From assembly GCA_019058315.1 (NCBI GenBank), contig JAHPZH010000001.1, positions 599,536 through 663,535 on the forward strand: a DNA stretch of 64,000 nt, written 5' to 3'. This document shows, one piece after another, positions 1,339 to 32,021 of this stretch. The notes below the pieces were generated by a model. The model worked only from the letters and a program-made list of their open reading frames with translations. It was not told the DNA's origin and made no database searches. A program made the translations under genes and the position numbers. Position 1 is the first letter of the stretch; each line of letters starts with the position of its first letter. The DNA comes from Candidatus Helarchaeota archaeon. Lineage in GTDB: Archaea > Asgardarchaeota > Lokiarchaeia > Helarchaeales > RDOG01.

Positions 1339-2402
1339 TTTTGATTGTTCTTAAAAGTATCATAAAGCATCTTTGCTATTGAGATGGATGGAGCGACTAA
1401 TGCTCCTTTACCACCAATAAGAGAATCAAAATCAATAACATTTTTATATCCTAATTCTTCAGCAGCTTTCCTCGCTAAAAAATCTTTCCCAAGACCAGTA
1501 ACAACAATAGGAAAATCCAGATCTTGTATAGCTTCATTATTATTCGTAACTTGTAACAATCCCTCTTTAATCTGTTCTAATTGTTTTCCGTAAATCTCTT
1601 TTGCGATATTTTGAATCTCTTCTTTTGAAAACATTTCAATATCAGCACAAACAATTCGTGCTAATCTTGCATAGGAGTTTTCTGAATCATTGTCTCTACC
1701 ATCTGCTGTATCGCAATTATATTCATTTCTTGTAATATTTCCTAAAATTAAATGAACATCTGCAGCAAGTGCAAATTTTTCAAAAGAGATTCTGCAAGGT
1801 TTACTTTTAATCTCGACTGTTCTAACAATTGATGGTATTGTTGCTCGTAATGAACCCGTATATACTAATTCACCAGCGATTAATCTGTCAAGATCAGTCT
1901 TACTTTCTGTAGCAATTTGTCCCTCAATAATTGGTATAATATCAGTTGTTGTACTACCAATATCTATCAATATACAATTGGAAACGTATTGACCTACTAA
2001 ATAACAAGTTGCAACCCAATTTGAAGCCGCAACAGATAAAGGTGCATTAATAGCTTGAGATATCGAAATAAAATTTCCATCAACAGTTAATACATGGCAT
2101 TTTTTTTCTGAAAATACTTTTTTAAATGAATTTAGGATATGGTTAACACCTTCACGCTTAGTATAAAAAGCATCTGATAACTCAGCAGTCATTGTTATTG
2201 CTATTAAATCAGGCTTGGCTAAAACCATAGTAGAATAAATACTTGATAATATTTCTGGTAATTTTTGACGCTCTTTTAACCACATAGGATAAAATTTTGA
2301 TTGAACTTTAAAACTTTCTATTTTTTCATTTTCTATCTCAACTAATGCTGCTTTAATATTTACTCCGCCAACATCCCAGCCAATAATTTTCAAATTATTC
2401 AC
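1335..2402 (-). CDS. mfnF: Hydantoinase-A-like methanofuran biosynthesis protein MfnF
   Basis: GWDVGGVNIKAA, TMTAELSDAF, AASNW, DIGSTTTDIIPI, TADGR motifs. Confidence 0.85.
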   Translation of the reverse strand: MNNLKIIGWDVGGVNIKAALVEIENEKIESFKVQSKFYPMWLKERQKLPEILSSIYSTMVLAKPDLIAITMTAELSDAFYTKREGVNHILNSFKKVFSEKKCHVLTVDGNFISISQAINAPLSVAASNWVATCYLVGQYVSNCILIDIGSTTTDIIPIIEGQIATESKTDLDRLIAGELVYTGSLRATIPSIVRTVEIKSKPCRISFEKFALAADVHLILGNITRNEYNCDTADGRDNDSENSYARLARIVCADIEMFSKEEIQNIAKEIYGKQLEQIKEGLLQVTNNNEAIQDLDFPIVVTGLGKDFLARKAAEELGYKNVIDFDSLIGGKGALVAPSISIAKMLYDTFKNNQK

Positions 2403-28133: not shown

Positions 28134-28243
28134 TGGTGCGGATGGGGAGATTTGAACTCCCGTTTTTAGATTTCAGCAGTTTTTGGCGTTCTAGTCCAAA
28201 TAATTTGGAAGTCTAAATGTCTAAACCTCTAACGTACATCCGC
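28134..28243 (-). tRNA. tRNA-Gly(TCC) with intron carrying an alternative GCC anticodon
   Basis: TTAGA-CT-TCC-A, 34-nt intron (28172-28205), A-TCTAA; GCC cassette at 28185-28187. Confidence 0.9.
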
Positions 28244-29611: not shown

Positions 29612-29824
29612 TGGCGGGATTGCGGGGAATTGAACCCCGACCTTATGATTTCTGTACTACGGTCGCTTTCCTCCTTTTTCAAAGTCTTATTCTAAACCCT
29701 GCCATGGATAAGTCAACTGAACCCCTATTAAGGAAATTTAATCATTTTTGAGGTGAAATTAATAATTATCAAAAAGGGGCCGTAGTTAGACAGTCATAAA
29801 TCATAGCCATTAGACCACAATCCC
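29612..29824 (-). tRNA. tRNA-Asp(GTC) with 138-nt intron
   Basis: Strict BHB (CTGT/ACAG helix, ACTACGG/CCGTAGT outer stem); intron 29650-29787; G73, CCA. Confidence 0.88.
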
Positions 29825-29882
29825 ATTATTCCTCTTCGACTTCAGCCCTAATCTTAAATTAAAAAATGGGGATAATTTGTTA

Positions 29883-29929
29883 GGGGGCAATAATTAGACA
29901 GTCATTAATAACTATTGAACCACAATCCC
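29883..29929 (-). pseudogene. Degenerate copy of the tRNA-Asp 5' half plus intron start
   Basis: GGGATTGTGGTTCAATAGTTATTAATGACTGTCTAATTATTGCCCCC versus GGGATTGTGGTCTAATGGCTATGATTTATGACTGTCTAACTACGGCCCC. Confidence 0.75.
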
Positions 29930-29963
29930 CGTAAGATGTTGTTGGCTGAGTATACAACTATCT

Positions 29964-30158: not shown

Positions 30159-30195
30159 TAATGATAGTGGCAGTAGGATTTGAACCTACAATCTT
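30159..30195 (-). pseudogene. 3' fragment of initiator tRNA-Met (direct repeat)
   Basis: 37 bp with 1 mismatch to 31002-31038. Confidence 0.9.
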
Positions 30196-30214
30196 ACAGG
30201 CTATTTGCAAAGAA

Positions 30215-30874
30215 TTAGATATTCTCTATTATGTATTTGGTCATTCCTTTTAAGATATATAACTCCTTTGTACTATCAATTCTCAATTTGCATACCCCAT
30301 TATAACTTCTACCGATTCCTCTAGAGCCATGCTTTTTTATGTAAGGTTTTGTAAACTGATTCTTTGGAATATTAAGTATTATTGACCAATAAGAAATCAT
30401 TTTTTCAATTTCATGATAAGAATGTAGATGAAGATGAATCTTAATAGAATTTTTATCGATTTTAAGAACATCTAAAAGAAATCTAAGAAAAATTTCAATT
30501 AATTTTGGGTCGGAATTACTAAATTCTATTCTATGATCACTAGATGTAGTCCCTTCGCTCTGATATAATGTTGTTCCTATTATCATTAGGTCTGACCAAT
30601 TTTCTTTTGCAATTTTCTGCCCTTCCTTATAATATAGTTTTCTTCGTTGTTTTGCTAGTTCCTTCATTTTGTGATGCCCTTTTTCTAGAATAGATTGAGA
30701 TTTCTTCTTCAGTCTATCTTTTTGTTCATTTGTTAAAATTATATCTCTTGTCCAGTTCGCAACTGTTCCCTTCGGTATTCCCATTTGTGAAGATATTTCT
30801 CCAAAAGAATACCCCTTTTTACGCAACCTCCTAGCTTTTCTCTTAATTTTTTCTTTATAACTTCTATACTTCAA
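30215..30874 (-). CDS. HTH plus LAGLIDADG-like (homing-endonuclease-fold) protein
   Basis: N-terminal HTH (LRKKGYSFGEISSQMGIPKGTVANW); GTTLYQSEG followed by IEFSNSDPKLIEIFLRFL. Confidence 0.7.
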   Translation of the reverse strand: MKYRSYKEKIKRKARRLRKKGYSFGEISSQMGIPKGTVANWTRDIILTNEQKDRLKKKSQSILEKGHHKMKELAKQRRKLYYKEGQKIAKENWSDLMIIGTTLYQSEGTTSSDHRIEFSNSDPKLIEIFLRFLLDVLKIDKNSIKIHLHLHSYHEIEKMISYWSIILNIPKNQFTKPYIKKHGSRGIGRSYNGVCKLRIDSTKELYILKGMTKYIIENI

Positions 30875-31007
30875 TGAACATCACTCTTATATCTCCATAG
30901 CCCAATAATGGCAGTTCAATTGTTTTGTTTCATATTCATATATAAACTCAACAAATTCTCCTGACTATCAAGTGAAATTTTCGTAGAGACGGGAAATTCA
31001 ATAATGA

Positions 31008-31101
31008 TAGTGGCAGTAGGATTCGAACCTACAATCTTTGGGTATCTCAATAGATTATTATTTATGAGCCCAACGAGATCTCCTGATTACTCCATGCCAC
31101 T
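31008..31101 (-). tRNA. Initiator tRNA-Met(CAT) with 19-nt intron
   Basis: A1-U72, three G-C pairs closing the anticodon stem; intron 31044-31062 with CTCA/TGAG helix. Confidence 0.92.
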
Positions 31102-31243: not shown

Positions 31244-31351
31244 TGGTGCTGACCGGGGGAATCGAACCCCCGTCAACGGATGTCTTCATGTAAATTCGAG
31301 ATTGCGTTTCAATCGAAAGTCCGCTATACTTGTCCGCTATACTAGGCCAGC
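31244..31351 (-). tRNA. tRNA-Glu(TTC) with intron carrying an alternative CTC anticodon
   Basis: 32-nt intron 31282-31313; T-CTC-G at 31297-31301. Confidence 0.92.
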
Positions 31352-31355
31352 ACGG

Positions 31356-31492
31356 TGGAGGGCTAGGAGGGATTTGAACCCTCAACATCTCACTATCTCT
31401 GGCTAACTTACGCTACAGATACATTCCGCATAAGGAAGAGCATGTCTTCTGCATACTAGGCGAGCGCTCTAGACCATTGGAGCTACTAACCC
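31356..31492 (-). tRNA. tRNA-Thr: AGT in place, TGT after removing a 33/34 intron
   Basis: U73, CCA; BHB TCGC/GCGG-AA|TGT-A defines introns 31424-31457 and 31395-31419. Confidence 0.8.
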
Positions 31493-31843: not shown

Positions 31844-32020
31844 TGGTGCAGGAGGAGGGATTTGAACCCTCGGTCTCAAGATTTCTTCTAGTATTAGGAT
31901 TCTGTTCGGATTCCGTTATTCGAATACTGTACTATTCGCATTCTGTTATTAGAATTCCAGATCGATGAGGATAACCTCAAAAAATTGTCTTGTAGTTTAT
32001 CCATACTAGCGTACTCCTGC
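31844..32020 (-). tRNA. tRNA-Arg with five tandem anticodon cassettes (TCT, GCG, TCG, CCG, CCT)
   Basis: A20 in D loop; stem CAAGA/TCTTG; on the + strand the insert reads Arg codons AGG 31896, CGG 31907, CGA 31921, CGC 31937 and AGA 31951, each in a tt-NNN-at context. Confidence 0.88.
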
Positions 32021-32021
32021 A

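Follow-up and report, generated by a model that had tools for sequence, protein, structure and literature searches.

Each transfer RNA gene is assumed to specify one anticodon, and one is what programs that search for tRNAs report. The tRNA-Glu gene described here, from a 64,000-nucleotide window of a Candidatus Helarchaeota archaeon genome, raises the question of whether a single gene can specify two isoacceptors; its intron holds a second glutamate anticodon, CUC, behind the first, UUC. Positions refer to the window, that is, the whole stretch of DNA analysed, and all features of the gene lie on the minus strand. We take the second module as a real, selected design in which alternative endonuclease splicing would swap the synonymous anticodon, and not as an accident, because of its placement, its conservation and its spread across the surrounding tRNA array. 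In our reading UUC is the main product of the gene. A minor CUC product in this genome is possible, and we lean slightly against it.

The gene occupies positions 31351-31247, with the acceptor stem GCUGGCC/GGUCAGC and discriminator A, and CCA is encoded directly after it at 31246-31244. It belongs to the tRNA family with an Rfam RF00005 score of 47.8 bits against a cut-off of 29, and ARAGORN, run with introns (-i), reports Glu(ttc) with a 32-nt intron. Both spliced forms discussed below are normal cloverleaves, which ARAGORN calls Glu(ttc) and Glu(ctc); the isotype is Glu, with a 7-nt loop that displays UUC in one form and CUC in the other. Because a single 105-nt gene contains every part, this is not a split or tri-split gene with pieces at separate loci. 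An 11-nt direct repeat, GUAUAGCGGAC, occurs twice, at tRNA positions 10-20 and 22-32 (31319-31342), and the D-loop thus contains a second copy of the 5' anticodon-stem strand. Because of this internal repeat, models of the whole precursor misfold in the D-arm region. The anticodon arm was analysed alone for the reason that equilibrium folding of the full precursor misfolds at the D-arm.

The arm, positions 31324-31276, comprises tRNA positions 27-43 including the insert and reads, in RNA-strand order, GCGGA-CU-UUC-GA-UUGAA-ACGC-AA-U-CUC-GA-AUUUACAUGAAGAC-A-UCCGU. Sequence and pair counts define the 5' strand of the anticodon stem (positions 27-31, GCGGA, 31320-31324) and its 3' strand (positions 39-43, UCCGU, 31276-31280). 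The 5' strand has two alternative partners, namely 39-43 or, through 27-30, the ACGC of the intron. The first anticodon module, C32-U33-UUC-G37, lies at 31314-31319, and its UUC (31317-31315), the anticodon that ARAGORN reports, faces GAA (31310-31308) across a GAUU loop. This hairpin (31308-31317) holds the first anticodon and is present in the minimum-energy fold of the nascent arm. Behind it, ACGC (31307-31304) stands opposite G27-C28-G29-G30 (31324-31321) with three pairs (G:C, C:G and G:C) and a G30.A mismatch. The bulge A,A|U follows at 31303-31301, and by its geometry U31301 would become U33. The second anticodon module, CUC-G37, is at 31300-31297 (CUC at 31300-31298), and the corresponding spliced form is Glu(ctc). 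The terminal GAAG (31287-31284) and the 3' bulge A,C|A38 (31283-31281) are common to both routes.

This layout had been proposed in a sequence-only reading, which described a Glu TTC/CTC gene with the pairing GCGG/ACGC, the bulge AA|T followed by CTC-G, the first anticodon in a TTC/GAA hairpin, and introns at 31302-31318 (17 nt) and 31282-31296 (15 nt). Every coordinate and pairing was found as described, and sequence comparison with the tRNA-Gln gene of the same array confirmed the shared architecture down to the G30.A mismatch.

Archaeal bulge-helix-bulge (BHB) motifs follow a published rule: each bulge has three bases and is cut behind its second base, and the outer helix needs 2 pairs or more (preprint 10.64898/2026.10.13.758758). 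For a canonical motif at 37/38 we required a four-pair central helix between positions 32-35 and the intron, a 3-nt bulge on either strand with the cut site in it, and two or more base pairs in the outer helix. The UUC intron (31313-31282, 32 nt, 37/38) has all of these. Its central helix CUUU/GAAG is complete (4/4), the bulges are C,G|A and A,C|A, and the outer helix h has 7 contiguous pairs, formed by the five anticodon-stem pairs extended upwards. It is a canonical hBH motif and the only 4/4 BHB motif that an unbiased scan found in the Glu arm of this genome.

The CUC route would require two excisions. The proposed 17-nt switch intron (31318-31302, 32/33) takes out U33-UUC-G37 together with the hairpin, and has the central helix GCGG/ACGC at 3/4 (G30.A), the 5' bulge A31,C32|U and the 3' bulge A,A|U. 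Its inner helix h', UUC/GAA, has 3 bp at the 5' bulge and exceeds the 2 contiguous pairs expected of an HBh' motif; the mismatch in the central helix places the motif in the relaxed class only in this genome. The second intron (31296-31282, 15 nt, 37/38) pairs CUCU with GAAG at 3/4 (C34.A), with bulges C,G|A and A,C|A and the anticodon stem as outer helix, and is likewise relaxed. Since both helices of this route carry one mismatch, CUC would be a minor product at best here. The terminal helix GAAG of this gene pairs with U34 and not with C34, and in the Gln and Lys genes of the array the terminal helix is GGAG, which is compatible with both. The order of elements on the CUC route, a four-base partner of 27-30, a two-base bulge, U33, a synonymous anticodon and a purine, fits the published BHB rule exactly. 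As stand-alone evidence, the relaxed 3/4 class was rejected because it is not discriminating: 102 motifs of this class can be drawn in the 49-nt arm, and in 14 of these the outer helix reaches 3 bp or more.

The layout is nevertheless more than chance, because shuffled inserts rarely match it and two other lineages conserve it. When the insert of this gene was shuffled with its dinucleotides preserved, U-CUC appeared in the right register and behind at least 3/4 pairs in 0.4% of cases, and in 1.6% when two registers were allowed. For the orthologous Glu genes of two further genomes, G006 and G003, the 4/4 version arose in 0.45% and 0.13% of shuffles, respectively. The pattern extends beyond Glu. 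Six of the nine multi-isoacceptor genes of the array carry a second synonymous anticodon behind at least 3/4 pairs, against an expectation of 1.97 (P = 0.002). Each of the 12 terminal 3' splice sites of the array opens its bulge with A, as do the three internal Glu sites.

The array is present in G006 (L003) and G003 (L011), which belong to the same order and another family; these orthologues were detected by BLAST and by a pattern for the five-cassette Arg gene described below. The Glu arm reads UCGGA-CUUUCAA-...-CCGA-AC-U-CUC-AA-...-GGAG-AA-A-UCCGA in G006 and CCAGA-CUUUCAA-...-CUGG-AG-U-CUC-CC-...-AAAG-AU-A-UCUGG in G003. Both keep the partner of 27-30, two bases and U-CUC, and the rest of the intron is much less conserved than the tRNA body. 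The 32/33 helix covaries at two positions: pair 27 is G:C in this genome, U:A in G006 and C:G in G003, and pair 29 is G:C, G:C and A:U. With the partner in place, 90.5% of cells are paired, compared with at most 43% when it is slid by 1-3 columns. The covariation of this helix equals that of the anticodon stem in strength. The covariation evidence, read from aligned sequences, is thin, given that the array occurs in three related lineages only.

In both orthologues the central helix at 32/33 is complete (4/4), with an h' of 5 bp in G006 and 2 bp in G003. The switch and the 37/38 intron are both canonical in G006, and in G003 they are the only two canonical BHB motifs of the arm. The G006 orthologue (L003:1471-1577) is thus the clean positive case and the Glu gene of this genome the weakened one. 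G006 can dispense with the cassette, since besides the array it has a separate Glu(CUC) gene as well as a separate Glu(UUC) gene (L197, L206). In G003 the CUC is followed by C37 and lies in the loop of a strong 6-bp hairpin. All three lineages repeat the dual design in their Gln genes, where h' has 8 bp and the terminal helix can pair with either U34 or C34. The G30.A mismatch occurs in both Glu and Gln of this genome only; this pair is G:C in both genes of G006 and of G003, and the mismatch of the G003 Gln gene sits at position 27. The earlier suggestion that G30.A hints at a shared relaxed motif is therefore not needed. The C34.A mismatch is found in this genome and in G003.

Folding models of the isolated arm weigh against the CUC route in this genome. 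We refer to the closed anticodon stem, with 27-31 paired to 39-43, as fold A and to the pairing of 27-30 with the intron as fold B. At equilibrium fold A dominates, and the pair probability of fold B is at most 0.005. The calculated energies of folds A and B are -6.3 and -3.9 kcal/mol in this genome, -12.1 and -11.9 kcal/mol in G006, and -11.1 and -4.4 kcal/mol in G003. With the first intron gone, the predicted probability of the second-intron BHB is approximately 0 in this genome and in G003, and 0.9 in G006. Before the 3' stem strand exists, the minimum-energy structure of the arm pairs G27-G29 with CGC of the intron, capped by the hairpin that holds UUC. In this genome that helix leaves G30 unpaired and is in a competing register, also 3/4, with the bulge G30-A31-C32, a cut at 31/32 and an h' hairpin of 4 bp. 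This competing register is the minimum-energy fold of the nascent arm here, and a cut in it would yield an aberrant loop. The sequence-only proposal of a dual UUC/CUC gene thus stands in part: its architecture is real, like that of Gln, conserved in two other genomes and covarying, but in this genome the 32/33 helix is 3/4, the 31/32 register is more stable and the second intron carries C34.A.

Based on these results, we propose that the precursor has two mutually exclusive folds. In fold A, pairing of 27-31 with 39-43 would create the canonical BHB at 37/38, the endonuclease would remove the 32-nt intron, and ligation would give tRNA-Glu(UUC) as the main product. Fold B would arise first during transcription, when 27-30 could pair with the intron ACGC while the first anticodon is locked in the UUC/GAA hairpin. 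It would present an HBh'-type motif at 32/33, and we infer that this motif is cut and ligated, with 17 nt leaving and C32 being joined to U-CUC-G. A second cut and joining at 37/38 would remove the remaining 15 nt to give tRNA-Glu(CUC). One tRNA gene may in this manner give two isoacceptors by alternative splicing, with the strength of the competing helices setting the UUC:CUC ratio and the same principle operating across the array (Gln, Lys, Ser, Thr and Arg); we advance this tentatively and as falling just short of probable. That the mismatches tune the gene for a low CUC share in an AT-rich genome is speculation.

The same arm could instead belong to a gene with UUC as its single product, in which ACGC-AA-U-CUC is a decaying relic of an ancestral dual design that may still work in relatives like G006. 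We consider this rather unlikely, although it deserves real weight. It accounts for the UUC intron being the sole canonical BHB of the arm in this genome, for a G30.A mismatch confined to this genome and a C34.A mismatch shared with G003, for the near-zero weight of the CUC route in the folding models and for the further decay seen in G003 (C37). However, contigs from four DNA runs were compared with the array, and in the three other sediment runs that cover the Glu gene (X2, X7 and X8) the gene is unvaried, among the differences listed, while nearby spacers differ between runs. The Gln gene, with the same G30.A, is otherwise fully dual-compatible, which suggests that the mismatch is tolerated or tuned. 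In addition, a search for a further Glu(CUC) gene in this genome gave none, although the assembly is incomplete and intron-rich genes easily escape detection; GAG accounts for 18.7% of the Glu codons. It is less likely still that the helix between 27-30 and the intron has been conserved for another structural role and that U-CUC is incidental. Such a role might be to stabilise the intron hairpin, or to hold the anticodon stem open as a folding delay or processing checkpoint. Helix covariation indeed reports selection for pairing and not for cutting, and in G003 the CUC sits in a hairpin loop that serves as the h' of a canonical motif. Such a role leaves unexplained why U and a synonymous C34 anticodon always follow the two-base bulge in Glu and Gln of three lineages, why the same placement of U and an anticodon recurs in other array genes, and why the spacing of the BHB 3' bulge is exact.

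The remaining explanations concern which product is made, if any. A constitutive two-intron gene, in which both introns always leave, Glu(CUC) is the sole product and the apparent UUC loop is intron, would agree with the abundance of multi-intron tRNA genes in Asgard archaea (preprint 10.64898/2026.10.13.758758). The first anticodon of the Thr gene, AGU, fits its terminal helix poorly, so that some first anticodons of the array may be spurious. For Glu this is very improbable, as the UUC motif at 37/38 has a complete (4/4) central helix and seven outer pairs in each of the three lineages, and in two of them the terminal helix is better matched to U34 than to C34. Equally hard to credit is a silent or dying set of gene copies, for example the remnant of a mobile element, of which no product matters. 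A second, dispersed tRNA set with its own Glu(UUC) exists in the genome, and the array contains HNH-like and homing-endonuclease-like reading frames and a polymorphic insertion. Against such decay, the acceptor stem has changed in a compensatory manner (GCUGGCC, GCUGCGU and GCUGCAG in the three lineages, each with a matching 3' strand), the Trp, Tyr, Met, Asp, Gln and Ile tRNAs are found only in the array, and the array is flanked by ordinary chromosomal genes, namely a UbiX-type flavoprotein, an amino-acid-kinase-family gene, UbiD and aconitase X.

Exchange of anticodons on a shared tRNA body has precedents among archaeal tRNAs joined in trans. In Nanoarchaeum equitans, one 3' half of tRNA-Glu is common to two 5' halves carrying UUC or CUC (PMC4033280). 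The likeness to the gene described here lies in Glu(UUC) and Glu(CUC) made from a shared body, with cutting by the BHB endonuclease and joining by ligase (PMC4033280). The halves of Nanoarchaeum equitans, however, are separate genes joined in trans, and the choice is which 5' half anneals, whereas here one contiguous gene would make the choice through which of two exclusive folds is cut. The tri-split tRNAs of Caldivirga maquilingensis, in which anticodon pieces are swapped between shared 5' and 3' pieces to give synonymous tRNAs (PMC4033280), follow the same logic of a modular anticodon. There, as many as three transcripts from different loci are spliced in trans, whereas here the arrangement is in cis, with the spare anticodon lying in the intron of the first. 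Multi-intron archaeal tRNA genes, known from Thermoproteales and Asgard archaea with HBh' and hBH motifs, resemble this gene in having introns away from 37/38, relaxed BHB motifs and an endonuclease, EndA, with two paralogues. Those genes have one fixed product from which all introns are always removed, whereas the Glu gene has two overlapping, exclusive sets of introns, each leaving a different anticodon.

In full-text literature searches we found no account of alternative splicing altering the anticodon of a tRNA, nor of a cis version with overlapping exclusive introns, and the recent Asgard tRNA-intron preprint (10.64898/2026.10.13.758758) mentions neither. If the proposal is true, gene counts underestimate the decoding capacity of intron-rich archaea, tRNA introns gain a clear function, which has been a long-standing question, and split and tri-split tRNAs gain a counterpart in cis.

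The enzymatic setting is compatible with relaxed splicing. The genome encodes two EndA paralogues (PF01974, 103 and 78 bits; open frames of 184 and 204 aa; regions C12:5422-5676 and C1:331438-331698), the composition expected of a broad-specificity host. A two-subunit EndA layout has been tied to broad specificity for relaxed BHB motifs (PMC4033280; preprint 10.64898/2026.10.13.758758, section 2.6), and by analogy the EndA of this archaeon is probably of the permissive kind. The assembly has 5.79 Mb in 12 contigs with approximately 30% G+C and is an estimated 94% complete. It contains an archaeal small-subunit rRNA and a full-length actin-family gene (448 bits), which fits an Asgard archaeon. 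The array comprises approximately 22 co-oriented tRNA genes on the minus strand (32248-27972). The dispersed tRNA set has a higher G+C content, is partly redundant with the array and is located on contigs C1, C5, C6, C7, C10 and C11 of this genome; its intron-bearing Glu(UUC) gene (C5:198977-199110) also has G37.

The array appears to have a narrow distribution. The five-cassette Arg pattern, scanned in 400 genomes of the phylum, matched only this genome, G003 and G006. BLAST of the locus against 60 relatives gave nothing beyond G006, and Rfam tRNA scans of the four other genomes of the order revealed no comparable array. A wider scan with the Arg pattern gave 119 metagenome, 46 genome (contigs of species-representative genomes) and 7 viral matches, among which the true ones were only of the G003 and G006 types and the others were chance. 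Independent dual Glu genes were sought with the pattern CUUUCRA...UCUCRA...GGUUC in 161 genomes of the class, which gave 58 matches against approximately 36 in a reversed control; none was in a tRNA besides those of this genome and G006.

Several other genes of the array have unusual arrangements. The tRNA-Arg gene (31845-32021, minus strand) has no valid anticodon after C32 and carries all five Arg anticodons (UCU, GCG, UCG, CCG and CCU) as tandem AU-NNN-AA units. The order of the five cassettes is conserved in G006 (L003, ~1003-1168) and G003 (L011, ~1500-1670), and their spacers differ. In the Thr gene (31359-31492, minus strand), AGU stands where the first anticodon would be and matches the terminal helix at only 2/4. 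A 4/4 helix in the 33/34 register precedes a UGU cassette, and this may be a constitutive two-intron gene whose first anticodon is spurious. The Gly gene (28166-28216, minus strand) has a GCC cassette behind a 4/4 helix in the 32/33 register, with C and not U at the future position 33, and its terminal helix fits GCC at 3/4 and UCC at 2/4. The tRNA-Asp gene (29640-29950, minus strand) has an intron of approximately 140 nt, and a second, diverged copy of its 5' half, also with the anticodon GUC, lies just upstream.

The 3' half of the tRNA-Met gene (31008-31101) is duplicated at approximately 30165-30200 (30165-31101, minus strand), and a reading frame of 219 aa (30215-30874) without a Pfam hit lies between the copies. 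In one sediment run a contig skips 30196-31061, and the insertion at the Met locus is therefore polymorphic, as expected of a mobile homing-type element. Finally, the Glu pattern search by chance revealed a conserved non-tRNA element, GCUUUCGAGCGAC...GUGUUGAAAG..., at L264 (~1500-1576, minus strand) and L267 (799-874, plus strand), which recurs in at least 3 genomes of another genus of the class.
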